53,890 bases of DNA, taken from contig JBDREN010000138.1 in the NCBI GenBank assembly GCA_043819795.1, positions 1 to 53,890 of the forward strand, read 5' to 3'. A model generated the notes under the pieces. That model was not told the DNA's origin. It did not search any database and worked only from the letters and a program-made list of their open reading frames with translations. Position numbers and translations under genes: made by a program. Each line of letters opens with the position of its first letter. Position 1 is the stretch's first letter. The stretch is from Elusimicrobiota bacterium. Lineage in GTDB: Bacteria > Elusimicrobiota > Elusimicrobia > UBA1565. This document shows, in pieces, positions 15,052 through 51,633 of the stretch.

Positions 15052-17373
15052 ATGAAACAGAAACTGACCCCCGTCGGAATCGCGATTCTCTCGGCGTGCG
15101 TCGCCGCCGCCCCGAACGCCCAGTGCGCCGGGGTCATCGCGGGGCAGGCCGCAAGCGCCGGACACACGGCGCCGTCCGTCGCGGTCCCGACCGTCCCGAT
15201 CCTCAAGCTCGACACCCTGGCCCTTTCCCAGGCCCCCTCGTCGCTCTCCTCCACCCTGCCGGGCATGACCATGATGTCCTACAACGCCGTGCCCCGGACG
15301 ATCCAGTCCCCGCTCGCCGCGCCCCGCGCGGCCGCCGCGAACGAGGCCTCCGCCGTCCCCGCCGCCCAGGCAGCCCCCTCCCGAGCCCCCTTGGCCCAGG
15401 CCCGGCAGGGCGTCCTCGGGACGATCAAGAAATTCGCCGCCGCGATCGCCGGCCCGAGCGCCGCCCGCGACGGGCGCATGGCCACGCACAGCCGCGCCCT
15501 CTTCGACGGAACGCTGAAGCGCGCCGCCGGCGAGGACGCCCCGACGCCGGTCCCCGCCGCCGCTCAGAGCCCCGCAGCGGTTCCGGGCAGCGCCTTGGGA
15601 CGCGCGGACCAGGACGGCGCCGACCTGGCGCGCCTCTACCCCCGGGTCGTGTTCCTTTTGGACGTCTTCAACGAGCCCGCGTCCGACAAGACCGCCCAGT
15701 ACGTCCAGAGCCTGGTCGACCACGGAGTCCACGTCGTGTTCATGACCTGGCGTTCGCAGAAGGGTCCGGGCTCCGCCGAAGAGATCCTCCTCTCGCGCGT
15801 CAAGGCCGGGCGCACCAACCCGGTCACCGTCGTCAGCCACAACGGCGCCCGCATCGCCCCCCACTCGCGCGCGAAGAACCCGGCGCCCGTAGTCGAGGAC
15901 GCCGAGTCCTTTAAGACGGAGCAGATCGAGACTTTCCGGCAGATCAACGCGAAGATCCGGGAAGCGATGTCCCTCAAGGAGCCTCTCGAGGAGCTCGGCC
16001 TCCCGGACGCCGAGAACTCATTTACCTATATAGTACGGCTGCCCGCCTCGGTCCCTGAGGACGGGGTCGCGGCCGCGCGCGGCCAGCTGACCCGCCGCTA
16101 CAACCAGCAGCTGAAGGCGGCCAATCTCCCGTTCCGCGTCTCGGCCCATTCCGGCGACGCCCGCGCGGTCATCATGCATTCGACGCCGCTGCGCTTCTCG
16201 CTGCGGCGCACCTTCGCGGCGCTCGACCAACAGTTCCGCGACGAGAACCTCTCGGACGACCCCGGCAAGTTCCTGCTCCTGACCGATACCAAGAAGTCCC
16301 CCGAGTTCTCCCGCGCGTTCCCGAAGCAGACCCAGATCCAGGCGATCCAGGACGGCGGCGGAGCCGAGAACATCCTCGGCGCGGTGCTGGGCAACAATAA
16401 GCTGCAGGCCGTCTCCGTGAAGCTCGGCAAGCTGCGGCAGTACGTAGAGTACTGGGAGCCCCGGCACCGGTACCTCCCCGCCAGCGAGGGCGCGGCCCCG
16501 GCCTCCGGCGGCTCCACCATGAGGGGCGGCGACCGCCTCTACAGCCAGAAGTTCGCGATGTTCACCGGGAGCGTGGTCTACCAGCTCATGGCCTGGTTCT
16601 ACGAGCAGGTATGGCGCGGCCAGCACAAGCTCACGCAGCTCAACCAGCTGGAGACCAAACTCCATTACATGTGGACGAAACCGCTCCAGAACGGCGTCTT
16701 CGTAAGCCAGTCGCTGGCCAAGCTCATGCGCACCCAGACCTGGAAGTCCATGAGCCCCGGCTATGAAAAGTACGCGCGCAGCTTCCTTCGCAACTTCTGG
16801 TTCCGCGAGTTCGGGAACTACAGCGCCGCCGCCAACGACGTCATGGAGAACATGGTGGGTTTGGCGACGGACCGCAAGAGCCTCATCACGCTGAACTTCG
16901 CCTCGCCCGCGACCGGCCGGATCTACAAGATCCACACCCGCATCCCCCGGCTCATGAAGCTCGACACGGCCGACGGCCGCGTGCTCACGGCCCACGGCTA
17001 CCGATCCGGCAAGGAGACCCCCGACGACGGCGAGGAGCTCTTCGCCAAGACCCTGGCCATGGCCACGCTGGTCGGCCACGGACGCAAGGGCCCGGACGGC
17101 AAGTGGCACCACGGCTCGCCGGACGGCAAGCTGATATCGAAGCTGCAGGTCCAGCTCGAGTACCGCTCGAGCCATCGCTCCTGGGTATTCAACCCCGAGG
17201 AGCTGCTCACGCTCGACGAAAACGGCCAGATCAGCCAGGGCCCGATCGTCAAGGAAATCTCCAGCACGATCGAGCGAATGGAAGCCGACGAGGAGTACCA
17301 GAAGCACGTCGCCGAGCAGGACCGCAGGGCCACGAAGGAAGACCTGAAGCCTAATAAGAGGAAGGGGGCCTGA
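15052..17373 (+). CDS. Leader-bearing protein: signal peptide + Ala/Pro linker + degenerate HAD-like domain + degenerate PD-(D/E)XK-like domain
   Basis: ATG 15052 with GAGG RBS; aligns by eye with the downstream paralog (GVHVVFMTWRSQKGPGSAEE vs GVFFVFLSDRPQDGPGSVEE; AHGYRSGK vs VVDFKSGQ). Confidence 0.7.
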   Translation: MKQKLTPVGIAILSACVAAAPNAQCAGVIAGQAASAGHTAPSVAVPTVPILKLDTLALSQAPSSLSSTLPGMTMMSYNAVPRTIQSPLAAPRAAAANEASAVPAAQAAPSRAPLAQARQGVLGTIKKFAAAIAGPSAARDGRMATHSRALFDGTLKRAAGEDAPTPVPAAAQSPAAVPGSALGRADQDGADLARLYPRVVFLLDVFNEPASDKTAQYVQSLVDHGVHVVFMTWRSQKGPGSAEEILLSRVKAGRTNPVTVVSHNGARIAPHSRAKNPAPVVEDAESFKTEQIETFRQINAKIREAMSLKEPLEELGLPDAENSFTYIVRLPASVPEDGVAAARGQLTRRYNQQLKAANLPFRVSAHSGDARAVIMHSTPLRFSLRRTFAALDQQFRDENLSDDPGKFLLLTDTKKSPEFSRAFPKQTQIQAIQDGGGAENILGAVLGNNKLQAVSVKLGKLRQYVEYWEPRHRYLPASEGAAPASGGSTMRGGDRLYSQKFAMFTGSVVYQLMAWFYEQVWRGQHKLTQLNQLETKLHYMWTKPLQNGVFVSQSLAKLMRTQTWKSMSPGYEKYARSFLRNFWFREFGNYSAAANDVMENMVGLATDRKSLITLNFASPATGRIYKIHTRIPRLMKLDTADGRVLTAHGYRSGKETPDDGEELFAKTLAMATLVGHGRKGPDGKWHHGSPDGKLISKLQVQLEYRSSHRSWVFNPEELLTLDENGQISQGPIVKEISSTIERMEADEEYQKHVAEQDRRATKEDLKPNKRKGA

Positions 17374-17375
17374 AA

Positions 17376-20063
17376 ATGATCCGCACGCTCAGACTCCTGC
17401 TCGTTTTCAGCCTCCTGGCTCCGCCGCCGGCTTGGGCCTCCGGGATCGCGCGCGTGGTTAGCGTGCGGACCTCGGTCAACGCCCCCGCCGCGACCGGAGC
17501 GGCCTCGGCCCCGGCCCTCCGACTGACCCAAGGCCAGGCCCGGACCTCGAATCTTTCCCTGGACTCCGCTCTGCCCGGCGCCAGCTCCGTGAGTCCCACG
17601 GTCTCGGCGGCCAAGCACGGCGCCCCTGCCGCGATGGCGACTCCGGCCGCGGCCAAGGCCGCGCGGCAGGCCCCGGCGGCCAGCGCCGCCGCTCCTTCGG
17701 CCAAGGCGGCCGCTCCCGTCCTCCGAGGCGAAAGCGCCCGCACGAATCTGAGCGCGGCCGCCGACCGGCGCGCCGCGGCACCGGCCTCGGCGGTCCGCCA
17801 CGCGCGCCCCGCCGACGGCTGGAGCTTCAACAGCCTGGGCAAGCTCTTCGACGGCGCGCGGCAGAGCGCGGCCTCCGGCGGCCTGCGGCCGGCCGCCGAG
17901 AACGCGGCCATAGACCACAGCGACGTCCCGACCGATCGCCCGGCCGAGCAGGAGGAGGTCACCTCCGAGATCGCCGCCGAGCCGGAGCCCGATCCGCTCG
18001 ACCTCCGTTTCAGCCGCGCCGCGAAAAAGGACATCATGGGCTCGGACGTATACGCCTCGATCCGCCTTATCAACGGGTCCGGCAGCCAGTGGTATTGGGA
18101 GCAGTTCGCGCCCGACATGCCGCTCCGCGTGCTGGTCGGCGGCAGGATGGCGTTCTTCACGCGCATCACCGGGGCGGAGACGAAGACGATCGCCTCCCTC
18201 ACCCGCAAGGATCTGGAAGGCCACTACTCCCGGGCCATCATCTACGGCACAAAGGGCAGCCAGTACCGGTATTCCGTCCCGCAGCTGCGCAAGCGGATGA
18301 TCCAGGATCTCACCAAACTCTCCGACGGGAAGCCGAACGCCCCGCGCGTGATCGGCTTGAGCACGAAGGTGCGGGTCATGCAGTTCATGCCTTACAAAGA
18401 AGCCCGCCAGCTCCCGGAGAACGAGATCGAGCCGGACATGGAGCCCCGGGTCCGCAAGCCCGTGGACATCCCCGAGTCGCTCGCCGGGCTCAAGCGCTTC
18501 CTACCGAAGGTCGTGCTCGTGGACCTCAAGCTCTTCGAGAAGGATGGAAGCATCCCCTTCGACCTGTTCGAGGATATGGGCAAGCTCATGAAGGCCGGCG
18601 TCTTCTTCGTCTTCCTCTCCGACAGGCCCCAGGACGGCCCGGGCTCGGTCGAGGAGATGATCAAGAAGGGCCTCACGCTCCGCCAGCGCGACGACGTCGT
18701 GCGCTACAAGCTGCTCAGCCTCTCCTACGGCGGCAACAGCCTCTACGAGTACCGCGGAGCTTTCTCCCGGCGCATCAGCGCGCGCCGCTTCCCCAAGGAT
18801 CAGCTCGAGATGCTCGAGCACGCGGCCCTGACCAACGGCGCGGCCAAGTCCCTCGTCTCCGAGGGCTACGAGTTCACCGCCCTTCCCAAGAAGGGCGTGG
18901 CGGCGGCGGACGTGGCCGAGGGCATGAAGCGGACTCTGGCCAAGCTCGGCGTCGGCGAGAGCGAGTACACGCTGAGCATCGGCGAGCGGGGCAAGGACCA
19001 AGCGATCACCTTCCGGCCCACGGACCTGCCCAGCGCCATCCCGCAGCTCATGGAGACTCTGCGGACCCAGAAGAGCCTTTACGTCAACAACAGCGACATG
19101 ATGGTCGTCTCCCGCGACAAGGCGATCCTCGACGCCACCGCGGGCGCGGTCCAGCCGGCGGCCGATGCCCCGAAAGCCCGGGGGGCCGACCTCGTCGAGA
19201 CCTCGCTGGCCGCCATGCTCGGCGCCTACCGGGAGAACGTCCCCGGCGACCTGGCGGCCTCGGCATCGAGCATGGCGTCATTCAAGTACAACAAGGGCGC
19301 GCCCTCAGGAAGCTTCGACTACAAGATCTACATGCTGCTCGGCCACGTCATGCACGCGGCCTTCAACTGGGCCATCTGGGTCTACCGCGACACCGGCGTT
19401 CTGCCGCCGCTCGAGGAGCTGATCGCCAAGTCGCACGAGATCTGGCGGATGGAGGACAACCAGCGCATCAAGCACCTGCTCGACCGCCCCGGCGAGTCCA
19501 CGGCCGGCTACATGGAGGCCATGGAGAAGCGCCTGCGCAGCATGCACGCGGCCACCGCGCACATCCTCGAGCGCTACCCCATCGCGGTCGGCACCGAGCT
19601 CCCGAACCTCTTCGTCCAGCAGCGCTACAAGAAGGGCGAGCGCACCCATCGCGACATCTTCCGCTTCATCTTCGACTTCGTCGTGGCCCGCGAGACCGAG
19701 GAGGGCCTCGAATTGGTGGTGGTGGACTTCAAGAGCGGCCAGACCTCCACCATGCAGACGCTCGCCAAGGACATCCAGGCGCAGCTCTACGACGTACTGG
19801 TCCGCAAGCTGTGGCCGACCCTGTCGGTGCCGTACGGGGCCAACGGCAAGCTCGCGAAGGTGGTCAAGACCGGAGTCTCCTTCATCTACCCGCCCGATGC
19901 CTACACGCCGGAGATCAACGAGTGGGACCGGGTCCGCTACGAGAAATGGCTGCGGAACATGATGAACCGGATCCGCAAGCACAAGGCAGGGCCGCCAGCG
20001 CCCAAAGCGAGGAAAACCGCGGCCGCCAAGAAAGACTCGCAAAACGTAAAGAAAAGCGGGTAA
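17376..20063 (+). CDS. Leader-bearing protein: signal peptide + linker + degenerate HAD-like domain + C-terminal RecB-like PD-(D/E)XK nuclease
   Basis: ASASSMASF, LGHVMH, GTELP, FIFDFV, VVDFKSG, QAQLY motifs in order at about 19250-19800; starts 2 nt after upstream stop. Confidence 0.75.
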   Translation: MIRTLRLLLVFSLLAPPPAWASGIARVVSVRTSVNAPAATGAASAPALRLTQGQARTSNLSLDSALPGASSVSPTVSAAKHGAPAAMATPAAAKAARQAPAASAAAPSAKAAAPVLRGESARTNLSAAADRRAAAPASAVRHARPADGWSFNSLGKLFDGARQSAASGGLRPAAENAAIDHSDVPTDRPAEQEEVTSEIAAEPEPDPLDLRFSRAAKKDIMGSDVYASIRLINGSGSQWYWEQFAPDMPLRVLVGGRMAFFTRITGAETKTIASLTRKDLEGHYSRAIIYGTKGSQYRYSVPQLRKRMIQDLTKLSDGKPNAPRVIGLSTKVRVMQFMPYKEARQLPENEIEPDMEPRVRKPVDIPESLAGLKRFLPKVVLVDLKLFEKDGSIPFDLFEDMGKLMKAGVFFVFLSDRPQDGPGSVEEMIKKGLTLRQRDDVVRYKLLSLSYGGNSLYEYRGAFSRRISARRFPKDQLEMLEHAALTNGAAKSLVSEGYEFTALPKKGVAAADVAEGMKRTLAKLGVGESEYTLSIGERGKDQAITFRPTDLPSAIPQLMETLRTQKSLYVNNSDMMVVSRDKAILDATAGAVQPAADAPKARGADLVETSLAAMLGAYRENVPGDLAASASSMASFKYNKGAPSGSFDYKIYMLLGHVMHAAFNWAIWVYRDTGVLPPLEELIAKSHEIWRMEDNQRIKHLLDRPGESTAGYMEAMEKRLRSMHAATAHILERYPIAVGTELPNLFVQQRYKKGERTHRDIFRFIFDFVVARETEEGLELVVVDFKSGQTSTMQTLAKDIQAQLYDVLVRKLWPTLSVPYGANGKLAKVVKTGVSFIYPPDAYTPEINEWDRVRYEKWLRNMMNRIRKHKAGPPAPKARKTAAAKKDSQNVKKSG

Positions 20064-20208
20064 AAACGAAACCCAGCCGCCCGGTCAGGGCTCACTACGA
20101 ACCCTTAGGACCCACATCCGCATAGGCCAAAATCCTCTCCTGCGCCGCCCCTAGGACCCAACCGCCCCCGAGAGTCGGCGGATATCCTTGTAGGGACGGA
20201 GATTATTG

Positions 20209-22689
20209 ATGGAGAGAACCCCGAAGAGGGCGTCGTCTATATTGAGGGCCATGAGCTCGGCGTTATGCGCCTCGCTCGCTCTCGCTTCGCCGGGCCCGCT
20301 GGCCGCGCGCGCCTTCGCGGGCGCCGTGCTCAGCGGAGCCGGCGCCTCCTCCGGACCCGGGGTATCACCCGTCGTGTCGTCCGTCGCGCCGCTCAAGTCC
20401 GCCCAAAGCGTTTCCGGACCCTCGCTTTCCGCCTCTCTCAGCTCGAACCTGCCCTCAAGGACCGCTCTGCCGGTCCCGGTCGCGCGCTCCCGGCCGGCGG
20501 CCTCCGCCGCGAAAGGCGCCAAGGCCGCCCGGACGATCGCCCACGCGGACCCGGCTTCGGACTCGCCCACGGCGGCCGCGAAGCCCGGTTCTACCCGCCG
20601 CTACGCCGCTGACGGATCCCGCTCCACGCGCCGCGCCGCGCGCGAAGGGTCCTTCCGGACGCTTCAGGACGGTGCCCGCGGGATCGAGCGGGCCCGCACG
20701 TCCGAGGGACGTTTCGCGGCCCTCGGGAATCTTTTCAGCGGGTCGTCGCGCCTCTCACGCGAGGCCTCTCCGCCGCAAGCGGGCGCGGGGCGCCAAGCGC
20801 CCCTCCGGCCCGGCCGCCTCGGGTTGAGCGCTCCGCGAGCCAAAAGCCGCAAGACGGCCGAGCGCCCGGCCACGGAGCGAGGCCCGCCGGCCGCCGCCAC
20901 GAAGGCCATCCTTGAAGAGATCGCCCGCGATCCCCGCGCCGCGGTGCTCATCGACTACGACAACACGCTGACCGAGCGCGGTCCCAACGGCCTCAGCCTC
21001 CCGACCCCGGGCTACATCGTCGACGAGCTGATCAAGACCCTCGAGACGGGGATGCCGGTGGCCATCGTCACCGCGCGCACCTTCGACTTTCAGCCCCCGG
21101 GGGCCACGTTCCCCGGCACGGACACGCCCCTTCCCTACGAGGTCAAGACCAAGCTGATCGACCTCATCCCGGCCGGGCTGCGCCGCAACATGTTCGTCTC
21201 GGCGGACGTGGGCGGCGAGCTGGTCGGCTTCGACGCCGACGGCAACACGGTCCGCCTCGAGGACGGCCGCTGGTCGTCCGAAGAAAAGCGCGCCATCCGA
21301 CGGGGAATGAGGTCAGCCCTCCATCAGACGGGCCTCACCGAGCGGGACGCCACCATCGTCGACAGCATGGCCTCGCAGACCGCGATCGTGTTCAAGGAGA
21401 GCGACGAGCGCGCGGCCGCGTTCGCCAAGACCCTGCAGGACGCCTTCCGGAAGAGCGGGGTGAGCATCGAGGTCCTCCACCACCGGAACTGGGTGTACTT
21501 CAGCAAGTTCACCAAGGAGGACGGCATCCGCGCGGTCTACGCGGCCATGCGGGCCCGCGGGTTCCCGGTGACCCCCGAGAACCTCCTGATCGTGGGCGAT
21601 CAGTTCCGCTCCGAGCCCGGCGTGCCCGAAGGCGGGGACGTGGCGATGGCCAGGCCTTTCCCCGCCTCCCTGATCGTCAGCGTGGGCGAGCCCGGGCAGA
21701 CCATACCGCCCAATGTCCGCCATTTTGGGATGTCCGGCCCCCGGGGCAGCCTGCGGCTCCTCGCGGCCAATAGGAAAGCCTACGCGCGCAAGCATCCCCG
21801 CGAAGTCGCCCCCGACCGAAGCCGACTGATCGCGGCCCTGGCCGGAGCGACCGCGGCGGTCGCCGTTCCCTGGCTCGTCGGACACGCGGCGGTCGCCGCC
21901 TCGGTGGGCAGCGTCGCCTTGGCCGTCATCGGCATCCCTCAGATCGTCAAGAACTTCCGCCACGGGAAGCGGGCCACCCAGGATTTGGCCATCGGCAGCT
22001 ATCTCTTATGGTTCGCGGCGGCGGCCTTCCTTACCCTGACATCGGTCCTGCGAGCCTCGAGCGTCTTCTGGATCGCGGCGAACGTGGCCGGAGTGCTCGA
22101 AAGCTTGGCGATCATCGGCCAGATCAACGCCCACCAGCGCGACCCGGGGACCTGGAGAAAGACCGTTATGACCGTCGGCGGCGTCCTGCTGCCGATGCCG
22201 CTGATCCTTTTCGGCGGCCTGCTGTCGGCCGCTGCCTGGGCTTCGGCGGCGTTCGCCGCGGCCATGGGGCTTCTGCTGGTCCTGAACGTCCCGCAGATCC
22301 GCAAGAACTACCTGCTCTGGCGCTCCGACCGGCTGGCTCCCACAGGGCTCGCCTGGGGCGCTCCGGCGCTCGTCGTTTTCGGCAGCCTGCTCCATCTCAT
22401 TCCCGCCGCGCTGGGAAGCGACGCCTTCTGGATGATCAACAGTCTGATGGCCACGGTCACGGCCGGCACCGTTCTCACGCAGATCTTCCGCCCCGGGCTC
22501 GCGAACGCCCTGCTCAAGCCGGCTATGTCGCTCTCGGACAGGATCCGCGACGCGCTTCGCCCCAAAAAGGGGAACCCGTCGCCCCCGACCGGCGAACCCG
22601 GGCACCCGGTCTTAAGGCCCAGGGCCCCGTGGGTCCAAATCCCCGCATCCGACCCCCAAATGGCCCAACCCCCCGCCCAGGAGGGCTGA
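20209..22689 (+). CDS. Leader-bearing fusion: HAD-IIB-like phosphatase + PQ-loop (SWEET-like) membrane transporter
   Basis: DYDNTL (motif I), VTAR (II), K (III), VGD...GGD (IV), then about 7 hydrophobic helices with IPQIVKN and VPQIRKN. Confidence 0.75.
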   Translation: MERTPKRASSILRAMSSALCASLALASPGPLAARAFAGAVLSGAGASSGPGVSPVVSSVAPLKSAQSVSGPSLSASLSSNLPSRTALPVPVARSRPAASAAKGAKAARTIAHADPASDSPTAAAKPGSTRRYAADGSRSTRRAAREGSFRTLQDGARGIERARTSEGRFAALGNLFSGSSRLSREASPPQAGAGRQAPLRPGRLGLSAPRAKSRKTAERPATERGPPAAATKAILEEIARDPRAAVLIDYDNTLTERGPNGLSLPTPGYIVDELIKTLETGMPVAIVTARTFDFQPPGATFPGTDTPLPYEVKTKLIDLIPAGLRRNMFVSADVGGELVGFDADGNTVRLEDGRWSSEEKRAIRRGMRSALHQTGLTERDATIVDSMASQTAIVFKESDERAAAFAKTLQDAFRKSGVSIEVLHHRNWVYFSKFTKEDGIRAVYAAMRARGFPVTPENLLIVGDQFRSEPGVPEGGDVAMARPFPASLIVSVGEPGQTIPPNVRHFGMSGPRGSLRLLAANRKAYARKHPREVAPDRSRLIAALAGATAAVAVPWLVGHAAVAASVGSVALAVIGIPQIVKNFRHGKRATQDLAIGSYLLWFAAAAFLTLTSVLRASSVFWIAANVAGVLESLAIIGQINAHQRDPGTWRKTVMTVGGVLLPMPLILFGGLLSAAAWASAAFAAAMGLLLVLNVPQIRKNYLLWRSDRLAPTGLAWGAPALVVFGSLLHLIPAALGSDAFWMINSLMATVTAGTVLTQIFRPGLANALLKPAMSLSDRIRDALRPKKGNPSPPTGEPGHPVLRPRAPWVQIPASDPQMAQPPAQEG

Positions 22690-22695
22690 TATACT
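22687..22695 (+). promoter_or_regulatory. Extended -10 element upstream of the MFS gene
   Basis: TGATATACT, no canonical -35. Confidence 0.4.
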
Positions 22696-22714
22696 TTTAT
22701 TAGCGGGGAAATCC

Positions 22715-25150
22715 ATGCCGAAAATGAAGGAAAGGCAAGCATTTCTATTGAGGACCTTGAGTTCTCTGCTTTGCCTTTGCCTCCTGCTGAGCTCCCCCGG
22801 CCCGCTGGCCACCCAAGCCTTCGCCAACATCATAACGCATAGCGGCAAGGTCTCGGCCGGCGTCCAGGTGGCCCCCATTCTACCGACCGTCTCACCGGTC
22901 AACTCGGCGCAGAACCTGTCCGCTCCGGCGCTCTCCATCTCTCTTAAATCGAGCCTGCCCACGACGGCCCTGCCGACCCCGATCGCCAAGTCCCCGGCCG
23001 CGCTCCGAAGCGGCGCGGTCGCGGCCGCCGCGAGGTCCGTTTTCCCGGCAGCAAAGACGGCCGCTCGCGCCGCCGAGACCCCGGCCGCATTGTCCATCCC
23101 CGGATCCCAGGCTCGCACCCCGATATCCGACAAGGCCGCACGTAGCGCGAGCGGCTACGGCGCTCCGGAGAGCGCCCGCGCTCCTCCGGCGGCGCGTCAA
23201 AGCCTCGAGACCGGCGCCCGGAATATTCAACAGGCCGCCACCCATTCAGGACGGTTCTCCTCCCTTCAGGCTCTTTTCACGGGCTCCCGCCGGTCCGGCG
23301 CGCAAGCCGTGCCGGCCGGACAGTCCGGCATCCGGAGCCTCCTGGGACGGATCTCCCGGCCGCTCTCATTGCGCCGGGCGGCGAATCCCGCCGCTCCGGA
23401 GCGGCGGGCCGAGCAAGGCGCCCGCCAGCCCCCAGCCCCCCCCTCGCGAACCGAGAAGGACGACGAGCTCTCGCCCGAGGCGCGGCGCGGGATTCTGGCC
23501 ATGTTCGCCGCGCGCTTCCCCAGCATGCTCGCCTACTCCATCTCGGCGATCTCCTATCCCCTAATCCTGATCGAAGCGGTCGGCAAGGGCGGGATGTACC
23601 AGCTGTTCTCCCTGGGCGGCCTGCTCTCGATCGGGCTGGCCCTGGTGGCGGGCAGGGTCGCGGACCGGATGCCGCTCAAGAAGTACATCGTCTTCAACAC
23701 CGCCCTCCGGGCCGTGCTGAGCTTCGCCACCGCCGGGCTCTACGCCGCGGGCCTGCTCAACTTCGGGACTTTGATGGGGCTGACCATCCTCAACGGCTGG
23801 CAGTTTACGACCCTCTTCATCACCGATCCCGCCATGATGACCGAGCTGGTCGGCGACAACCAGGCCAAGATCCGCTCGACCGAGGCGCTCCTCCGCATCG
23901 CGACCATCTTCGTCACCGTCCTGTCCGGGCTCTTCCTGGGCAAATACGTGGTCGACGCGATGGGTTTCGCTCCGACCTTCGTGATCGTCGGAATCCTTTA
24001 CGCGATCCCGGTCTGGATCCTCGGGAAGTTCTTGCCGGACATCAAGCGAAAGCTGGTCCGGAAGGCGGGGCAGGTCGCCGACAAGCTCAAGAAGCTGCCC
24101 TGGAAGAAGATCGCCCTGAATACTGCCCTGCTGGCCGGAGCCATCGGGATCTACGCCTTCGTCTGGCAGTCCCCCTTCCCGTTCATCGCCGCGGTCCTAT
24201 TCATGCTGTGGCGCTCCGCCATCTTCCAGAACGTCATCAAGAAGCACGGCCTGCTCAAACTCGCGCTCGTCTTCGTGATGCTGACCGCCATCGCCGAGAT
24301 CCCGATGCGCAACGCCGTCCTCGGGGCCCTGGCCGAAGAGACCGTGGGGCAAGCCGGCAAGGCGGCCTTCTTCGGCAATCTCCTGGCCTCCTTCTATATG
24401 GGGCAGCTGGTGACCGGGACCGGCATGCTGAGCCCTTCCATGGAGATCAATATCTCCAAGATAGGCCCATGGAAGCTCAAGTCCCCCATCCGGTTCAACC
24501 TGAAGACGACCTTGAAGTGGGTCGGCGCCGCGGGCCTGGCCGCCTGGAGCTACTTCTACGTCATCCCCAAGGGCTGGCTGGCGTCCGCGGCGGCCTCGGT
24601 GGGATTCACCGCCTTGTCGCCCGCGCTATTGACCGTGATCGGCGGGATCGCGGCGGCGGCGGCCGTATTGAAGCTCTACACGAGCGTGCATAACGCGGTC
24701 CCCAAGGTGAGCCCGCGCGCGTGGATGCGCTGGGAGATCGTGGGCCTGCTCGGCATGAGCATTCCCCTCTTCTTCTGGGGATCGCCGGCGGCGCTGTACT
24801 TGAGCCTGTTCCTCTTCGGCATGCTACATAACGCTACCGCCCGCACGATCAGCGCCACCTACGCGAGCCAAGCCAAGAAACACGCCAGCGACTCGTTCCA
24901 GTACATGATGGGCATCAAGAGTTCCTTCGTCAATATGGCGACCTCCATCGCCTACGCGATCTACGGCCTGGCCAAGACCCTGCCCGAGAAGATCTGGGGG
25001 GACCCCAACGCCTTCCCGTTCACGTGGTACGTCGTGGTGGGGATCTACGCGATCTTCGCGGTGGTCTTCTTCGCCGGCAGCCGCCACATGCCGGGCCGGG
25101 ACAAGAAAGAGGCGGTCAAGTCTTCAGCGGATCAAGCGCGCCGCGCTTGA
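22715..25150 (+). CDS. Leader-bearing MFS-like transporter
   Basis: ~245-aa leader homologous to that of 20209-22689, then >=12 hydrophobic helices with MFS motif A (AGRVADRMPLK). Confidence 0.75.
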   Translation: MPKMKERQAFLLRTLSSLLCLCLLLSSPGPLATQAFANIITHSGKVSAGVQVAPILPTVSPVNSAQNLSAPALSISLKSSLPTTALPTPIAKSPAALRSGAVAAAARSVFPAAKTAARAAETPAALSIPGSQARTPISDKAARSASGYGAPESARAPPAARQSLETGARNIQQAATHSGRFSSLQALFTGSRRSGAQAVPAGQSGIRSLLGRISRPLSLRRAANPAAPERRAEQGARQPPAPPSRTEKDDELSPEARRGILAMFAARFPSMLAYSISAISYPLILIEAVGKGGMYQLFSLGGLLSIGLALVAGRVADRMPLKKYIVFNTALRAVLSFATAGLYAAGLLNFGTLMGLTILNGWQFTTLFITDPAMMTELVGDNQAKIRSTEALLRIATIFVTVLSGLFLGKYVVDAMGFAPTFVIVGILYAIPVWILGKFLPDIKRKLVRKAGQVADKLKKLPWKKIALNTALLAGAIGIYAFVWQSPFPFIAAVLFMLWRSAIFQNVIKKHGLLKLALVFVMLTAIAEIPMRNAVLGALAEETVGQAGKAAFFGNLLASFYMGQLVTGTGMLSPSMEINISKIGPWKLKSPIRFNLKTTLKWVGAAGLAAWSYFYVIPKGWLASAAASVGFTALSPALLTVIGGIAAAAAVLKLYTSVHNAVPKVSPRAWMRWEIVGLLGMSIPLFFWGSPAALYLSLFLFGMLHNATARTISATYASQAKKHASDSFQYMMGIKSSFVNMATSIAYAIYGLAKTLPEKIWGDPNAFPFTWYVVVGIYAIFAVVFFAGSRHMPGRDKKEAVKSSADQARRA

Positions 25151-25278
25151 TCCGCTCACACCTCTCTCTCAACAAGAGGCTCTGTCCGCCGAAGGCGGGC
25201 GACCCCCTCATAACCCAGCGGTGCAAGCGACCGGAAGGTCCCTTCGGGAGTTCCGGCGCTGAAATGACTTAAATCCCA

Positions 25279-25307
25279 TTGACAAGGGGGGACTCCTCGG
25301 TTACACT
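25279..25307 (+). promoter_or_regulatory. Sigma70-type promoter
   Basis: TTGACA-17 nt-TACACT. Confidence 0.7.
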
Positions 25308-25367
25308 AATGACGGCACCCCGCCGAGTAGGCGTCCACCACTACCGGACGCCGGAAGTCCGTATTCC

Positions 25368-26843
25368 TTGATGAGATCAGTCCTCCACCGAGGGCGTTTT
25401 GCGCTCGCGGCGCTCGCGACGGCGATTTGCTTGTCCCGGGCGGCGTCGGCCGCCCCGGCGTTCACGCCGGAGGAACGCGTCCTATTCTCCTCCATGGTCG
25501 TGCAGGCCGTGGTCCCCAGCACCAGCGGCTACCGCATGTACATGACCAGCGACAGCGTCCGGGTGCTCTCGGCCAGCTCGACCGATCAGATCAATTGGAG
25601 TCTCGAGACGGGCATCCGGCTCTCGACGGCTCCCGACCATCTCGACTCCTCGTCGATCACCGCCCTCGGGGTCCTGCCCTCGACGAACTCCGCCGACGGC
25701 TACCGCATGTACTACGTCGCCCTCAGTTCGGGCGGCCTCTACAGCCTGCTGAGCGCGACCTCGACCGACGGCCTGAGCTGGGGCAAGGAGGCGGGATACC
25801 GCCTGAGGGCCAACGGAGGCGCCGGCTTCCTCGACTCCCCACAGCCGCTGAGCGTGAGCGGCACGCTCATGCGGCTGTTCTACGTGGCGGACAACGCCGG
25901 CGGCAACGACCCCTCCAACTACCGCGTGTTCGCGGCGACATCGAGCGACGGGGGCCTCTCCCTCGACGAGACGGGAAGCGTCCTCTCGGCTCAGGCCTAC
26001 CAGGTCTCGGTCACGACCCTGACCGACGGCCGCACGCGCCTGTATTACTCGGCGCCCCTGACCGGCGAGACGACGGCGTCCCAGGTGCTCTCGGCCATCT
26101 CGGACGACGGGGAGACCTTCACCGTGGAGGACGGGGTCCGTCTCTCCACGACATCCTCGCTCGCGGCCCTGACGTATCCCCGGGTCATCCGCACGACCGA
26201 GACGTTCCGGTGGCGCATGTTCTCCAACTACACGCTCTCGGGATCCACGGAGCCCTACGTCTCCAGCGCCCTGACGCTCACCCCTGTCGTGGACTCCCTC
26301 GCCCCGGCCTTGGTCCTCAATTCACAGACGGCCGTCCCGTTCACGCTCTCGGGCGAGATCTTCTCGCCGTCACCGACCGTGACCTTCACGCAGGGCGCCG
26401 CCACGTTCACGGCCACGGGCGTCGCGCGCCCGAGCGACCTCCAGATCACCGGCACGATGGACCCCTCCACTCGATCCACCGGCAACTGGCACGTGGTCGT
26501 GACCAACGCGGACGGCATGGGGGGGCTCCGGTCGAACGGGCTCTACATCGACATCCCGCCGGGCAACGTGACGATCACCGACAACCTCTTCCGGCCGCTC
26601 AGGGGCCAGTCGGCCAAGATCGCGATCGAGATCTTCGAGATCGGCAACGTGACGGTCAGGCTCTACACGGTGGCGGGGGGGCTGGTCGCCACCCTGTACG
26701 ACGGCCCCATGCCCACGGGGACCACCCTGGTCACGTGGGCCGGCACGACCTCGCTCGGCAACACCGTGGCAAGCGGGGTCTATCTCCTGAGCGTGCGCGG
26801 GCCGAAGATCGACACCGTCAAGAAGATCGTGGTGATCAAATGA
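25368..26843 (+). CDS. Secreted beta-propeller protein (Asp-box-like repeats) + Ig/TIG-like domain + FlgD/T9SS type-A-like C-terminal domain
   Basis: Signal peptide; repeats YRMY...SAxSxDG.xW/F; C-terminus W.G....G..VASGVYLL....KKIVVIK. Confidence 0.75.
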   Translation: MMRSVLHRGRFALAALATAICLSRAASAAPAFTPEERVLFSSMVVQAVVPSTSGYRMYMTSDSVRVLSASSTDQINWSLETGIRLSTAPDHLDSSSITALGVLPSTNSADGYRMYYVALSSGGLYSLLSATSTDGLSWGKEAGYRLRANGGAGFLDSPQPLSVSGTLMRLFYVADNAGGNDPSNYRVFAATSSDGGLSLDETGSVLSAQAYQVSVTTLTDGRTRLYYSAPLTGETTASQVLSAISDDGETFTVEDGVRLSTTSSLAALTYPRVIRTTETFRWRMFSNYTLSGSTEPYVSSALTLTPVVDSLAPALVLNSQTAVPFTLSGEIFSPSPTVTFTQGAATFTATGVARPSDLQITGTMDPSTRSTGNWHVVVTNADGMGGLRSNGLYIDIPPGNVTITDNLFRPLRGQSAKIAIEIFEIGNVTVRLYTVAGGLVATLYDGPMPTGTTLVTWAGTTSLGNTVASGVYLLSVRGPKIDTVKKIVVIK

Positions 26844-27793
26844 GGACCGCCTCCCTCCTGATGGGTCTATGCGTCCTCGTCGCGGCGCCCCCGCGCGCCG
26901 AAGCCGAGCCGGGCCGCACGGCGGCGCCGTTCCTCCAAAGGGCTCTCGGCGCCCAGGCGGCGGGGATGGGCAACGCCTTCGTAGCCGTGCCGGGACGGGC
27001 CGACGCCATCCAGTACAACCCGGCCGCCGCCGCCACGCTGGACCGCAAGACGCTTTCCTCGACCTACCTGAACGGCTTCGGGGGCACGACCCACGGATTC
27101 CTCGGCTACGCGCACCCCGTGCCCCACGGGACGCTGGCGGCCGGGGTACTCTACTTCAACGCCGGACGTATCGACCTGAACCTCTCGGACGGCACCCGCG
27201 GCCGGGTGACCGCGGGAGAGGACAGCGCGTGGACGCTGTCCTACGCGGCCCGGCTCGGAAGCCGCCTGAGCCTCGGGGCGACCTACCGTTTCGTGCGCCT
27301 CGAGCTCGCCGAGACCGTCCACGCCACCACCTCCCAAGGCGACTTCGGCCTGCTATGGAAGGTCCCGGGGCCGCTGCGGGGACTGTCCGCGGGAGCGGCG
27401 TACCAGTATTGGGGCCCCGACATCACCTTCGAGGAGGTGGGCGATCCCGCCCCTCGGACGCTCCGCTACGGCCTGGCCTATCACTTCCCGGAGGTCTCCA
27501 CGAAGCGGATCGACCCCAGCGTCGACCTGGAGGAGTTCGACATGACGCTCACGACCGACGTGATCGAGGTGCGCCATGAGAAGCGCTCCCCGCGCCTCGG
27601 CGTCGAGCTCGGCCTCACGCCCTCCTTCATGAACCGGATCGCCATCCGCTTCGGATGGGTCTTCGAGCGGGCCGGAGAGTCCCACACCATCGGGGTGGGG
27701 CTGCGGCACCGCGGCGTCCGGTTCGACTACGCCTTCGGAGGCAGCCCGGAGCTGGGCAACCTCCAGCAGCTGTCCTTGACGCTGACGTTCTGA
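26840..27793 (+). CDS. PorV/PorQ-family outer-membrane beta-barrel
   Basis: ATGA-coupled start at 26840; signal peptide; GAQAAGMGNAFVA...AIQYNPA signature; DYA near the end; terminal Phe. Confidence 0.8.
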   Translation: MRTASLLMGLCVLVAAPPRAEAEPGRTAAPFLQRALGAQAAGMGNAFVAVPGRADAIQYNPAAAATLDRKTLSSTYLNGFGGTTHGFLGYAHPVPHGTLAAGVLYFNAGRIDLNLSDGTRGRVTAGEDSAWTLSYAARLGSRLSLGATYRFVRLELAETVHATTSQGDFGLLWKVPGPLRGLSAGAAYQYWGPDITFEEVGDPAPRTLRYGLAYHFPEVSTKRIDPSVDLEEFDMTLTTDVIEVRHEKRSPRLGVELGLTPSFMNRIAIRFGWVFERAGESHTIGVGLRHRGVRFDYAFGGSPELGNLQQLSLTLTF

Positions 27794-27843
27794 GGCGCGA
27801 CAAGGCGGAACAACGACCTCTCGGATGTCGGGCGCCGCGCGTG

Positions 27844-28479
27844 TCAGACCACGCCGAAGGCCAGGAGCGTCTTTTCCAGCCGCGCGGCGCCCCGGTACCG
27901 GACGGCGTGCATGCCCAACTTGCGCGCGGCGGCCACATTGGCCGCCAGATCGTCGATGAAGAGGCTCTCCGCCGGGTGCACGCGCGCCCGGCGCAGCGCC
28001 GAGAGATAGATGCCCGGCTCCGGTTTGCGCAGGCCGAGACGGTGGGAGAGCACGGCGCCGCGCACGTGACGGGCGAAGGCGTACCGGCGCCGGATATGGT
28101 CGTAGTGGATGGCGTTCGTGTTCGATAAGAGGTAGACCCTGCGGCGGGCGGCCGCCCGCCGCAGGAGCCCCGCGGTGCGCTCAACCAGCTCGAAATGAGC
28201 GCACCAGATCCCGCGGAACCGGGCGTAATCGCCGGCGAATCCCATCTCGCGTTTCAGGAGCCGGAAGATCCCTCTCGGGGGGATCAGCCCCCGCTCGATC
28301 TCATCGGAGAGGCGGCCCGACAGGAGCAGCCGCGCGACGCTCAGGGAGTGGCCGCGCGAGACCCGGGCGATATGACGCGCCAAGCGGGCCGCGTCGAACT
28401 TGAGCAGGACGTTGCCGATGTCGAAGAATACGGCCTTGATCGCGCGCTCGGGCTTGTCCGTGTCCTCCGTATTCCGCAT
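27844..28479 (-). CDS. HAD-IA family phosphatase (YihX-like)
   Basis: FFDIGNV, LLSNTN, RKP, FIDD...NV motifs. Confidence 0.88.
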   Translation of the reverse strand: MRNTEDTDKPERAIKAVFFDIGNVLLKFDAARLARHIARVSRGHSLSVARLLLSGRLSDEIERGLIPPRGIFRLLKREMGFAGDYARFRGIWCAHFELVERTAGLLRRAAARRRVYLLSNTNAIHYDHIRRRYAFARHVRGAVLSHRLGLRKPEPGIYLSALRRARVHPAESLFIDDLAANVAAARKLGMHAVRYRGAARLEKTLLAFGVV

Positions 28480-28537
28480 AATCTATCCCTGCCGGATATT
28501 AAACCTGTTCTGAACGACAGGATAAAGGAGCCGCCCC

Positions 28538-29236
28538 ATGCCCGAGACACCGGATGCCTCCAGCCTCGAGGCCGCCCTCAAGCTCATGGCTCCGATCATC
28601 AGCCATGAGATCCGCAATCCTCTGGCCGTGATCGGCAACTCCTCTTACTTCGTCAAGACGAAGCTCGTCCAGCTCGGCACGAAAGACGCCAAGATAGAAA
28701 AGCACCTCGGCATCATCGCCATCGAGCTCAAGCGCGCCAACGACGTCCTCTGCGAGATCCTCGCCTACGCGCGGATGAAGACCCTCTCTCTCCACCCCCT
28801 CCCGCTCAACGGCCTCGTGACCGACGGGATCAACGACCTGGAGGTCCCCGACTCCGTACGCGTGCGGGTCTCGCCCGCTCCGGAGAACCCCATCGTCCTC
28901 GCCGACGCGGAGCTCGTGTGCGCGGCCATCCGGCACGTCGTCCGCAACGCCGTGGAAGCGGCCGGCCTCACGAAAGACGGCGGCGGCGTCCAGGTCGCGA
29001 TCAAGGTCGAGGACGGGAAGTGGGGCGTGGTGGAAGTCACGGACGCCGGCGCGGGGGTCCCGCCGGAAGAGCGGGAAAAGCTTTTCACCCCCTTCCATAC
29101 GACCAGGCCCCGCGGGATCGGCCTCGGCTTGGCTTTCGCGCGCAAGGTCATCGAGAGTCTGGACGGACGCGTCGAGTTCGTGGCGCCGGACGGCCCCGGG
29201 GCGAGGTTCAGGCTGCTGCTGCCGAAGAGGCCCTGA
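28538..29236 (+). CDS. Sensor-less histidine kinase (HisKA + HATPase)
   Basis: SHEIRNPL H-box, RNAVEA N-box, D.G.G, F.PF.TT, GIGLGL. Confidence 0.85.
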   Translation: MPETPDASSLEAALKLMAPIISHEIRNPLAVIGNSSYFVKTKLVQLGTKDAKIEKHLGIIAIELKRANDVLCEILAYARMKTLSLHPLPLNGLVTDGINDLEVPDSVRVRVSPAPENPIVLADAELVCAAIRHVVRNAVEAAGLTKDGGGVQVAIKVEDGKWGVVEVTDAGAGVPPEEREKLFTPFHTTRPRGIGLGLAFARKVIESLDGRVEFVAPDGPGARFRLLLPKRP

Positions 29237-30788
29237 ACAGCCCCCCCAGCCACGACGCGAGACGCGCCAGCCGGTTCGGACGCGCCGGCTCGACATCGAG
29301 CTTCTTGAGAAAGGCCAGCGAGAGCAGGTAGGCGTTCTTGTAGTGCGGCAGGGAGAAGGACACCATCGTGTCCCGCGCGCTGTGAACGATGTCCCAGATC
29401 GTGTCGTTGGAGGCCCCGAATACCGTCATGGCCAGGATCCCCGCGCGCCGGAAGCTTGAGGAGTCGCTGTCTCCCCCCCAGAGCCGCTCCTCCCTCAGGT
29501 CCAGCCCGGTCTCCGAGGCGACCCGCCGGATCTTCTCGAGGAGCGCCTTGTCCGAGCGGTTCGGCCAGGAGAACGTCCCGTCCACGGCCAGGGTGTCGAG
29601 GTTGAGCATGGAGTCGATCCGCCCCCGCTCCTCGCGCGAGAGCCCGCGGACGTACTCCTTCGAGCCGATCAGACCCTCCTCCTCGCGCGCGAAGGCCACG
29701 AACACGTAAGTGGCGTCGGTCTCGACGTCCCTCATGGCCTGGTAAAGGTTGGTGACCATGGTCGCGCCGGTCCAGTTGTCGATGGTCCCGTGCCCGACGC
29801 CGGCCATGTCGTGATGGCCTCCCACGACGACGACCCGGTCGGTCCGGCCCTTCTTGACGACGATGATGTTGTGGCGGCCCCTGCCCGCGTCCTGGAGCCG
29901 GATCTCATCGGGAGCCGCCCCCGCTTGCTGGAAAAGCTCGACGACGACCCTCTCGCGCTCCGCGTTGGTCAGGGGGGAAAGGGCCATCTCGTCATAAAGC
30001 TCCTGGTCGTCCGGCATCGCCTGGGGAGCCTTCCTCCCCGGCTCCGGCAGCGGGACGGGCGTGGTCCGGCGCGAAGCGACGACCGCCGCGTGGCGGCCGG
30101 GCAGCAGCCGCCCCGCCGCGAACCGGCGCTCGGCGTAGCCGGCGAACTCCTCGGGAGAGAGCGGCCGGGCGGACGGGGCCGGCGCGGAGACGGCGCCGGC
30201 GGCGCGCTGGCCGTCGAAGACCGCCGCCAGAAAGCCGCGGGCGGAGGCGCCGGGCGCGACGCGGCCCAAGTCCTCGGCGAGCCGCGCCAGCAGGGGCCTG
30301 CCCTCGGCGGCCCGTCCCACGACGTCGAGCTTGCGAGCGACCGCCTTGCCGAGTTCTCCGCCCCGTGCCCCGAGCAGACGGACGGCGCGCGAGCGGCCAG
30401 CCGGATCGGCGAGCGCCCGCGCCAGGAAACGGGCCGCTTGGGCCTCCGTGGAGAGCTCGGCGGCCTCGAGGGGAGTCTCGAGCGCCGCGCGCGACAGATA
30501 CTCCGCGGCGTCAGCCCCGGAAACGTCTGCCCGGGCGGGGACCTTCGGAGCGGCCGTCGTCGGCAGCGTCGAGCCCAGCCGGAGCGAGGTCTGCTCCAGG
30601 TGCCGGTCGAGCGCCCGCAACAGTTGCGCTGAGACCGCCCCGGCCGAGGTCGCGGCCTGGCCGGGTCCGAAGTTGACCGATGGCGAGCGGACCGGGGCCC
30701 GGAACGCTCCGGCCCAACCCGAGGCCGGAAGCGCCGCGCAAAGCCATACCGCGAGCAGTCGGACGAAGAGGCGGCAGTCCATATTCAT
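29208..30788 (-). CDS. Leader-bearing M28 family metallopeptidase
   Basis: GGHHD, G.IDNWTG, REEEGLIGS, NLD, SD, HS..D motifs; signal peptide from ATG 30788/30782; leader with LGSTLP and VFDG. Confidence 0.82.
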   Translation of the reverse strand: MNMDCRLFVRLLAVWLCAALPASGWAGAFRAPVRSPSVNFGPGQAATSAGAVSAQLLRALDRHLEQTSLRLGSTLPTTAAPKVPARADVSGADAAEYLSRAALETPLEAAELSTEAQAARFLARALADPAGRSRAVRLLGARGGELGKAVARKLDVVGRAAEGRPLLARLAEDLGRVAPGASARGFLAAVFDGQRAAGAVSAPAPSARPLSPEEFAGYAERRFAAGRLLPGRHAAVVASRRTTPVPLPEPGRKAPQAMPDDQELYDEMALSPLTNAERERVVVELFQQAGAAPDEIRLQDAGRGRHNIIVVKKGRTDRVVVVGGHHDMAGVGHGTIDNWTGATMVTNLYQAMRDVETDATYVFVAFAREEEGLIGSKEYVRGLSREERGRIDSMLNLDTLAVDGTFSWPNRSDKALLEKIRRVASETGLDLREERLWGGDSDSSSFRRAGILAMTVFGASNDTIWDIVHSARDTMVSFSLPHYKNAYLLSLAFLKKLDVEPARPNRLARLASWLGGLFRASSAAAA

Positions 30789-30895
30789 CCATAGGCTAGC
30801 CGGATCCCCCTTGGGCGGGAAGCGACGAAAGGCCCATCGTCGGCCCCCCGGAAGACCCACCCGTTTATCGGCCAAAAGGCGCTTGCGGACCGGCC

Positions 30896-44854: not shown

Positions 44855-45002
44855 CTTATACCCCGGAATAGCGCATAACTTCATGATCTGTGATTAACCG
44901 GGATAAAACATCCGGGCGTTGGTGATAAAAACACGATTTAAAACAATGGGATTCCCCACTTATCCACAGTATTCGCAATATTAAACAAGAGGACGAGGAC
45001 GC
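44839..45002. other. Probable replication origin oriC (dnaA-dnaN intergenic region)
   Basis: AT-rich; perfect TTATCCACA at 44960-44968, TGTGGAAAA at 44839 and several degenerate boxes; housekeeping gene orientation switches here. Confidence 0.75.
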
Positions 45003-46414: not shown

Positions 46415-49039
<2,625 letters not shown>

Positions 49040-49047
49040 GGGAGGAC

Positions 49048-51633
<2,586 letters not shown>

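Follow-up and report, generated by a model that had tools for sequence, protein, structure and literature searches.

A bipartite N-terminal leader on cysteine-purged, cytoplasmic-type proteins across an order of Elusimicrobiota

Signal peptides followed by a second N-terminal element, carried by otherwise unrelated cargo on its way to another compartment or cell, are known from the PEXEL proteins of Plasmodium, the oomycete RXLR proteins and the signal-plus-transit peptides of plastids. A comparable arrangement occurs in a 53,890-nucleotide stretch of an Elusimicrobiota genome of the UBA1565 lineage (contig JBDREN010000138.1 of assembly GCA_043819795.1; this whole stretch is called the window here), where five genes between clpC and lepA, not far from dnaA, encode proteins with unlike C-terminal parts (the cargo) behind a shared N-terminal leader. 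The proteins are named after the first nucleotide of their start codon: 15052, 17376, 20209, 22715 and, on the minus strand, 30788. Sequence comparison identifies a real, order-wide, bipartite leader on cysteine-purged cargo of cytoplasmic type, which is apparently undescribed. In its way of working it resembles a PEXEL-type signal or effector tag, but it has the defining features of none of the bacterial secretion classes tested. The likeness to the eukaryotic signals is functional only: the leader is bacterial, its motif lies 140-240 residues into the protein, and neither RxLxE/Q/D nor RxLR occurs in the consensus of the leader alignment.

Among bacteria, the giant proteins of Omnitrophota, or Archaeovorins, are alike in joining a signal peptide and membrane helices to cytoplasmic-type domains (HAD, glycosyltransferase, radical SAM), and in the available text of two reports they are tied to Tad or type II loci and given a proposed predatory role (10.1101/2023.11.21.568195, 10.64898/2026.06.07.730766). 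They are described there as single proteins of at least 10,000 aa, whereas the leader described here is short and portable and sits on dozens of scattered Elusimicrobiota genes for proteins of 225-5474 aa; the word 'cysteine' does not occur in the available text of either report, nor 'leader' in that of 10.64898/2026.06.07.730766. Passengers of type V autotransporters, in the passages available, share Sec export and a very low cysteine content (PMC9769942), which is 0.04% after the signal peptide in the proteins studied here. They differ in that no C-terminal beta-barrel is found among the best Pfam matches of 45 own and 43 foreign members and in that the cargo is cytoplasmic-type or polytopic. 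Likewise, no C-terminal Ig-like sorting domain as used by type IX secretion systems (T9SS; FlgD_ig, CHU_C) is listed among the matches of the members, although the neighbouring protein at 25368 has one. Transmembrane effectors of the type III and type IV secretion systems (T3SS, T4SS) are also moderately hydrophobic membrane proteins destined for a foreign membrane, but according to the passages available they carry C-terminal or chaperone-bound signals and enter their machine from the cytoplasm (PMC12981334). As to the Tad/Kil system of Myxococcus and the Tad pili of Bdellovibrio (PMC12428579, PMC8460266, PMC12075869), Tad loci are present in the order studied here and lie near core leader genes in family f1; however, the passages available contain no class of leader-tagged cargo (PMC12428579), and Tad is here near phylum-wide with a secretin of about 250 aa. 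Searches of main texts in the literature gave no account of the leader, of an F-D-G targeting motif or of cysteine-free cargo in Elusimicrobiota; the available parts of two further reports compared (10.1101/2022.07.08.499144, PMC11573180) likewise contain no description of the leader. A UBA1565 genome from a non-axenic amoeba culture has been described as that of a diderm with seven amino-acid auxotrophies (PMC9476967).

Leader anatomy, conservation and range

The host genome (G000; 4.99 Mb, 90% complete) yielded 3186 open reading frames (ORFs) in our own gene calls, of which 2220 proteins of at least 250 aa entered the motif statistics. The motifs on which the original prediction had been built are clearly enriched there. 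L.S.LP at residues 41-130 occurs in 30 proteins, against 7.2 ± 2.9 (maximum 15) in 100 shuffles, and L.S.LP followed by [LV]F[DST]G in 10 proteins, against 0.15 in shuffles. Among 1114 proteins with an N-terminal hydrophobic run, 56 continue with a region of at least 50% A/P/S/G; removal of ten without motifs (by eye) and addition of four missed by this filter gave a set of 50 leader proteins, to which profile searches of the same genome add 2-3 more genes.

The leader consists of five parts. It begins with a signal peptide, scored heuristically by a basic n-region, a hydrophobic run and AxA, which often ends in PG-x(2-5)-[YW]-x-A-x-A (23 of 44 leaders of relatives, 0.1 expected) and is followed mostly by Q (43/110) or A (25/110). 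A G/A-rich stretch, often ending in LxSxLP, precedes a length-variable, basic, S/A-rich A/P/S linker with few acidic residues and a median net charge of +6, which in some proteins (30788 and several orthologues of 17376) is replaced or interrupted by a helical insert. The fourth part is a pair of helices with F/Y-D-G, or a variant like [DE]R[LIV]LG, at its end, and a second floppy stretch leads into the cargo. The end motif could be placed in 49 of the 50 leaders, at residues 140-242 (median 179), and the helix before it is amphipathic, with a hydrophobic moment of 0.61 compared with 0.50 for the linker (p 5e-4). An ESM Atlas search with the leader gave scores of just 0.80-0.82 and serves as a lead only. 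One further protein of the host genome (G000:C72:3199-11064, plus strand; 2621 aa) has a signal peptide of the family type and two early F-D-G motifs with no A/P/S linker, and is a candidate for an atypical member or a part of the machine.

That the leader is conserved independently of its cargo is seen in two orthologue sets chosen by cargo alone. Among 57 orthologues of 17376, 47 have a long N-terminal extension (123 to 236 aa, with helical inserts); a signal peptide is present in 46 of these and F/Y-D-G in 44 (0.5 expected), and before residue 236 no columns other than F158-D159-G160 reach a conservation of 90%. The extension is kept by 77 of 84 orthologues of 15052, with the signal heuristic positive in 65 of the 77 and F/Y-D-G in 63 (1.3 expected). 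As the orthologues within each set are related to one another, these counts measure conservation and not independent origins. Strict LxSxLP is absent from all 77 extended orthologues of 15052 and even its loose form occurs in only 19 of 47 extended orthologues of 17376, and it was rejected as the core signal. Judged from these alignments, the core conserved element is F/Y-D-G together with the signal peptide often ending in PG-x(2-5)-[YW]-x-A-x-A, while LxSxLP is a feature of the host genome's lineage. A lipoprotein reading (signal peptidase II) was also rejected: 15052 carries LSAC, but a lipobox occurs in just 1 of its 77 orthologues, and 17376 is cysteine-free. Two signal peptidase I genes are present in the host genome. 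C-termini often bear short basic tails (mean +2.3 vs +1.0, a modest enrichment), which were set aside as a second signal because they follow the generally basic cargo.

The leader is also portable, as had been proposed, sits on very diverse cargo and is restricted to a lineage. A profile of its first two parts matches all 30 relatives of the order, with 3-36 matches per genome, but none of six GC-rich genomes outside the Elusimicrobiota and neither of two titled Elusimicrobiaceae; two other Elusimicrobia gave 11 and 13 matches. Leaders picked in relatives by this N-terminal profile show the broader end pattern in 13 of 44 cases (3.2 expected) and [DE][RL][LIV]LG in 5 (0.1 expected). Searched against 1.84 billion proteins, a wider profile gave 175 matches at E up to 0.001, and the best 150 of them comprise 147 N-terminal leaders and three repeat proteins, which were dropped. 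Of 67 new leaders of at least 240 aa from this search, 10 contain F/Y-D-G (1.1 expected) and 8 the LG variant (0.4 expected). Ten of these matches were looked up; four of their clusters were named by taxon, all as Elusimicrobiota, two of the four being training sequences. For the RecA of the host genome, the four top-ranking relatives are Elusimicrobia records. Named orthologues of the window proteins belong to Elusimicrobiota in 15 of 16 (one partial record is labelled Gaiellaceae) and 16 of 17 cases (the other being labelled 'bacterium').

Across 250 sampled genomes of the phylum, with at most 21 candidates scored per genome, the profile matched 18 of 19 genomes of the order, the single f11 genome, which bears the same leader, all three f8 genomes and, weakly, 8 of 79 f4 genomes, and none of the other 148. 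By family, f1-f3 and f11 are leader-positive and f4 and f8 partly so, in contrast to f5, f6 and f14. Core cargo (membrane domain plus M48) is found only in 16 of the 19 order genomes and in f11. The f8 matches have the same type of signal peptide on giant cysteine-poor proteins (4 cysteines in 6402 aa read), one of them with GGDEF and MFS domains. Two such giants (L210, G164:C37, and L211, G130:C60) are encoded by open frames that span 17,755 and 4,241 aa and hold very few cysteines, and near-identical N-termini of this type recur at several contig ends. In f4, three proteins (L205:2296-10518, L207:7682-11452 and L208:8225-10870) combine a signal peptide, a length of 880-2740 aa, a C-terminal MFS domain and 2-7 cysteines; such signal-peptide MFS proteins are possibly a divergent form of the leader system. 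No proteins of leader type were found in a 400-kb sample (153 ORFs) of an f5 genome or in 400 kb of an f14 genome, where long cysteine-free proteins resemble, by eye, autotransporters or outer-membrane proteins. In genome G253, orthologues of 17376, 15052 and 30788 adjoin one another within a 27-kb stretch that holds seven leader genes.

Upstream regions add a hint of shared regulation of the leader genes. A -10-like box lies 4-8 nt before the start of 20 of 50 leader genes, compared to 85 of 900 controls, and among first genes of units it precedes 17 of 44 leader genes vs 66 of 561. The fuller sequence ATCC(G/C)GCTAnnnT stands directly before the start of 30788 and of five other leader genes; in its strict form, a motif defined after the fact, it precedes six genes, four of them leader genes.

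Cysteine loss, cargo and membrane topology

The cargo is nearly free of cysteine, and this begins right after the signal peptide. In 94 proteins cysteine makes up 68 of 3393 residues of the signal peptide (2.0%), 3 of 14,382 of the leader (0.02%) and 29 of 72,394 of the rest (0.04%). Past residue 45 there are 17 cysteines in 37,638 residues of the 50 members of the host genome and 16 in 48,534 of 44 foreign members; of the 17, four belong to a radical-SAM CxxxCxxC or adjoin one. Similar values are seen in 64 further members (25 in 55,669 residues) and in the orthologue sets of 17376 (0 in 45,492) and 15052 (3 in 61,694, with 108 cysteines in the first 40 residues of the set). By comparison, cysteine reaches 1.0% in 1850 other proteins of the host genome, 0.93% in 179 ordinary exported soluble proteins and 0.955% in 203 polytopic ones, and aligned segments contain 6 cysteines in leader cargo vs 87 in leaderless paralogues (up to three matches per cargo).

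As the purge starts right after the signal peptide, it is evidence, independent of the motifs, that the proteins leave the cytoplasm, and this is very probably the case. Periplasmic residence alone, however, does not purge cysteine, since ordinary exported proteins keep 0.93%. Low cysteine content marks the passengers of autotransporters and, in the passages available, is linked to their unfolded state in the periplasm, the passengers being poor in cysteine because they cross unfolded (PMC9769942). For the leader proteins, the oxidising stage could perhaps be placed in the periplasm of a target or at the surface.

The cargo itself is of a kind normally expected inside a cell. A Pfam match was obtained for 23 of 45 further members of the host genome and 33 of 43 foreign members. 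These include transport and membrane families (MFS, ABC exporter, SDF, MscS, Rce1), proteases and ATPases (M48, M50, M16, S8, LonB, ClpB, MutS, SF1 helicase) and an ATP-grasp ligase, an ABC1 kinase, a nucleotidyltransferase, HD-GYP, phospholipase D, amylases, GT20, vWA/DUF58 and radical SAM. A leaderless paralogue in the host genome exists for 23 of 92 cargoes, the helicase being 46-48% identical to its leaderless twin. Most catalytic motifs are kept, and motifs that depend on substrates of the cytoplasm, namely those of the SF1 helicase, the Walker A/B of ClpB, the Walker A of MutS, HD-GYP and the radical-SAM CxxxCxxC, are intact. By their sequences the cargoes are extra copies of ATP- or nucleic-acid-dependent enzymes and polytopic transporters.

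Membrane topology gives a further indication of an unusual destination. The leader and the first MFS helix are not separated by any hydrophobic segment in 22715 and four orthologues, and sequence-based topology places the motif-A-like loop RVADRMPLKK and the lysine-rich central loop on the leader's side. Since these loops are normally cytoplasmic, an exported leader would place them outside, which is at odds with a simple insertion of the protein into the inner membrane of its own cell once the N-terminus has been exported. The helices of polytopic cargo are also less hydrophobic than those of other polytopic proteins of the host genome (30 vs 203 proteins, p about 1e-7; within the host genome only, 8 vs 203, p 0.004-0.008) on a simplified, approximate Hessa-type scale, with no hydrophobicity prefilter and families unmatched. 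Moderate hydrophobicity is, in the passages available, a property of secreted transmembrane effectors (PMC12981334).

A proposed route and its alternatives

The original prediction took the leader for a portable targeting or processing signal that sends cargo beyond the inner membrane. Portability and lineage restriction are borne out and the cysteine purge points to export, while the destination, a cleavage near F-D-G and the machine that reads the leader are still proposals. In our estimate, the chances are about even that the leader works as a bipartite signal directing Sec export, passage in the unfolded state and transfer into a prey or host cell. In such a route, the protein would leave the cytoplasm unfolded, led by a cleavable Sec signal peptide. 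The A/P/S linker and the F/Y-D-G helices would then be read by a second translocase or a chaperone, which would keep the cargo unfolded and move it past the cell's own envelope. In the last and least certain step, the cargo would arrive in a prey or host cell in contact with the producer; there, the soluble domains could meet ATP, nucleic acids and sugar phosphates and transporters could insert into the target membrane with their normally cytoplasm-facing side toward the leader. The cargo kit (proteases, Clp/Lon, nucleases, a helicase, glucan enzymes and MFS, ABC, SDF, MscS and PQ-loop carriers) might digest and drain another cell. Somewhat more tentatively, at slightly below even chances, members of the order would be contact-dependent predators or parasites with an unrecognised two-step pathway, in which Sec peptide and F-D-G helix direct cysteine-free enzymes and whole polytopic transporters, dozens in all, across the periplasm and into a second cell, placing their own nutrient exporters and machinery for degradation in the cytoplasm and membrane of the prey.

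We know of no pathway by which bacteria export transporters of 12-14 helices, or cytoplasmic enzymes that depend on ATP, behind a cleavable signal peptide and a common N-terminal tag; with either destination, a prey cell or an energised compartment of the envelope, this would be a new sorting route. It also gives a testable lifestyle hypothesis for a widespread uncultured lineage, and the leader profile together with the cysteine signature is a ready marker for listing cargo in any genome. The same route may explain the puzzling signal-peptide-bearing metabolic giants of Omnitrophota.

Several observations weigh against the reading as a bipartite delivery signal. Among the 44 leaders that the N-terminal profile picked in relatives, only 2 contain strict F/Y-D-G (0.8 expected). 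A number of cargoes (S8, M28, amylases, phospholipase D) belong to ordinary types of extracytoplasmic enzyme, and some domains are degenerate (the ABC signature, and the HAD DxD in 15052 and 17376). Within MFS proteins (13 vs 9) mean helix hydrophobicity does not differ significantly (p 0.23), only that of the most hydrophobic helix does (p 0.016), and helices near 0 kcal/mol are normally still released sideways from SecY. Neither DsbB nor VKOR was found in the host genome at its 90% completeness, and VKOR occurs in 7 of 31 relatives, so that a need to avoid disulfides in the producer's own periplasm is not established as the cause of the cysteine loss. A predatory or parasitic lifestyle is not shown for the lineage in the available parts of the literature searched. 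With one marker family each and in incomplete metagenome-assembled genomes, the T6SS (type VI) marker VipB was found in 0 of 31 genomes, the T3SS marker FHIPEP in 1 of 31 and the T4SS VirB4 family (PF03135) in 0 of 1.

Tad, too, fails to discriminate. It is present in 19 of 19 sampled genomes of the order, but by its RcpC marker also in 207 of 251 genomes of the phylum, even in those of 1.0-1.5 Mb, and in families without a leader match (f5 19/20, f14 57/70), and therefore does not explain the range of the leader. In all four f1 genomes examined, a leader-bearing subtilase lies 10-15 kb from the Tad locus, in the order Tad locus, two-component cassette, subtilase, with an exported DUF6588-like protein in between in three; in genome G017, on the other hand, the Tad locus has no flanking leader gene. 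Tad systems are, to our knowledge, not known to translocate periplasmic proteins, and Tad is a weak candidate for the machine of the second step. Elsewhere in the host genome, the leader genes lie dispersed between unrelated genes, and inspection by eye of the neighbours listed revealed none that recurs and would point to a dedicated machine. The DUF6588-like protein (L116:18365-19558, minus strand) is conserved directly upstream of the subtilase in the three f1 genomes and is a candidate outer-membrane partner. The Tad locus of the host genome (G000:C216:26000-44000; also L215 and L216) has a short secretin of about 250 aa and a fused CpaE-CpaF ATPase.

Alternatively, though with clearly lower probability, the leader could sort its cargo to an ATP-supplied compartment of the cell's own envelope, be it the periplasm in an energised state, an invagination, vesicles or a sealed junction between predator and prey, with the transporters inverted in the inner membrane or seated in the membrane of the compartment. 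A Sec-type signal and cysteine loss fit any extracytoplasmic residence, the cargo holds a self-contained quality-control set (ClpB, Lon, M48, M50, Rce1, M16), and the T3SS, T4SS and T6SS markers revealed no injection system. Matches to the ATP/ADP translocase TLC, found in 22 of 31 genomes, could indicate a supply of ATP, but they are weak and partial (best E 8e-16). Such a compartment is also hard to reconcile with the cysteine content kept by ordinary exported proteins of the host genome, with nucleases, a helicase and MutS-like proteins that would have no substrate in a periplasm, and with a positive charge bias of the MFS loops that is still on the leader's side.

It is rather improbable that the leader is instead a propeptide, tether or intramolecular chaperone of proteins secreted to the surface or medium by a type II or T9SS-like system or in vesicles, with F-D-G as a processing or docking site and the cytoplasmic-type domains acting on material from lysed cells. 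The host genome does have five secretin genes and 13 matches to ATPases of the PilB/GspE/PilT/TadA type, including those of the Tad locus; subtilases, M28, amylases and phospholipase D are typical secreted enzymes, and the conserved leader-bearing subtilase could be the processing enzyme. Propeptides are cargo-specific, yet this leader is common to unrelated folds, and type II systems carry folded substrates, in which disulfides are tolerated. Neither polytopic transporters nor ATP-dependent enzymes can function in the medium, and the Pfam matches listed for the members contain no C-terminal domain of T9SS or barrel type.

An uncleaved or unused N-terminal hydrophobic segment, which would leave the proteins on the cytoplasmic face with the leader as a scaffold-binding or regulatory region, is very unlikely. 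It would suit the cytoplasmic topology and chemistry of the cargo, and the signal-peptide calls rest on heuristics; but the basic n-region, the hydrophobic core and A-x-A followed mostly by Q or A are conserved, and cysteine vanishes right after the A-x-A site while leaderless cytoplasmic paralogues keep it. Finally, leaders that are mere GC-rich 5' extensions read as A/P/S/R-rich text, with the real starts downstream, can be dismissed as next to impossible: the leaders are low in complexity and score below the cargo in codon usage, but they read as coding (G+C at third codon positions 0.84 vs 0.92 in cargo), their motifs exceed shuffles, -10-like boxes precede the long starts (20/50 vs 85/900), N-terminal leaders make up 147 of the best 150 matches of the wider profile, the profile of the first two parts hits none of the GC-rich controls (0/6), and conservation in cargo-selected orthologues already refutes the artefact.

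The five leader proteins of the window and their surroundings

All five ORFs are real and begin with ATG (Table 1). The five LxSxLP and five end motifs are present as predicted, although the positions first given for the end motifs were those of their second residue, 3 nt past the motif start. The proposed homology of the third and fourth leaders is upheld by 45% identity across the aligned N-part, whereas the A/P/S-rich stretch ascribed to all five is less pronounced in 30788 (A/P/S fraction 0.37, with 15 acidic residues). The -10-like box 4 nt from the ATG of 30788 supports that start, and its transcript is probably leaderless.

Table 1. Leader proteins, leaders and an upstream element in the window.
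Position	Strand	Feature	Match or remark
15052..17373	+	773-aa leader protein; degenerate HAD-like domain and C-terminal region distantly related to 17376	84 orthologues
15052..15510	+	Leader 1: signal peptide, SLSSTLPG (15241-15264), A/P/S linker, helices ending ALFDG (15496-15510)	
17376..20063	+	895-aa leader protein; degenerate HAD-like domain and PD-(D/E)XK nuclease domain (aa 650-868)	PF12705, E 2.7e-7
17376..17855	+	Leader 2: signal peptide, SLDSALPG (17556-17579), linker, KLFDG (17841-17855)	
20209..22689	+	826-aa leader protein; HAD phosphatase (DxDxT intact) fused to PQ-loop membrane domain	PF04193
20209..20742	+	Leader 3: signal peptide with SPGPLA, SLSSNLPS (20434-20457), linker, NLFSG (20728-20742)	
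22715..25150	+	811-aa leader protein; MFS transporter	PF07690 (MFS_1)
22715..23284	+	Leader 4: signal peptide with SPGPLA, SLKSSLPT (22940-22963), linker, ALFTG (23270-23284)	
29208..30788	-	526-aa leader protein; M28 metallopeptidase, metal-ligand motifs present	PF04389 (Peptidase_M28), E 3e-22
30210..30788	-	Leader 5: signal peptide, RLGSTLPT (30581-30558), helical-type linker, AVFDG (30224-30210)	
30793..30805	-	-10-like box ATCCGGCTAGCCT, ends 4 nt before the 30788 start	Motif defined after the fact

Four of the cargo assignments hold, namely PD-(D/E)XK in 17376, PQ-loop and HAD in 20209, MFS in 22715 and M28 in 30788, while 15052 is without a Pfam match. A HAD-like fold for 15052 is suggested by Atlas look-alikes only (features 0.90-0.92; structure score under the naming bar) and by a short sequence match to 17376 (E 5e-6), because of which the two cargoes are regarded as related; on inspection, the DxD motif is absent from both. 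A search of PDB sequences with the cargo of 17376 gave no match. Cysteine is missing altogether from 17376 and is confined to residues 16 and 25 in 15052, 20 and 22 in 22715, and 5 and 17 in 30788.

Between the leader genes, an exported FlgD-Ig-domain protein followed by a PorV-like protein (25368-27793, plus strand) forms a T9SS-like pair of cargo and shuttle; in G000, G018 and G104, a pair of similar kind stands at the head of the Tad locus. Beyond 30788, an exported low-complexity protein with repeated RRGERMER-like units (30955-31890, plus strand) has no Pfam match above cut-off. Further along the window (43502-51633, plus strand), dnaA, dnaN, gyrB and a probable gyrA, together with a GC dip to 0.55-0.60, mark the replication origin region.

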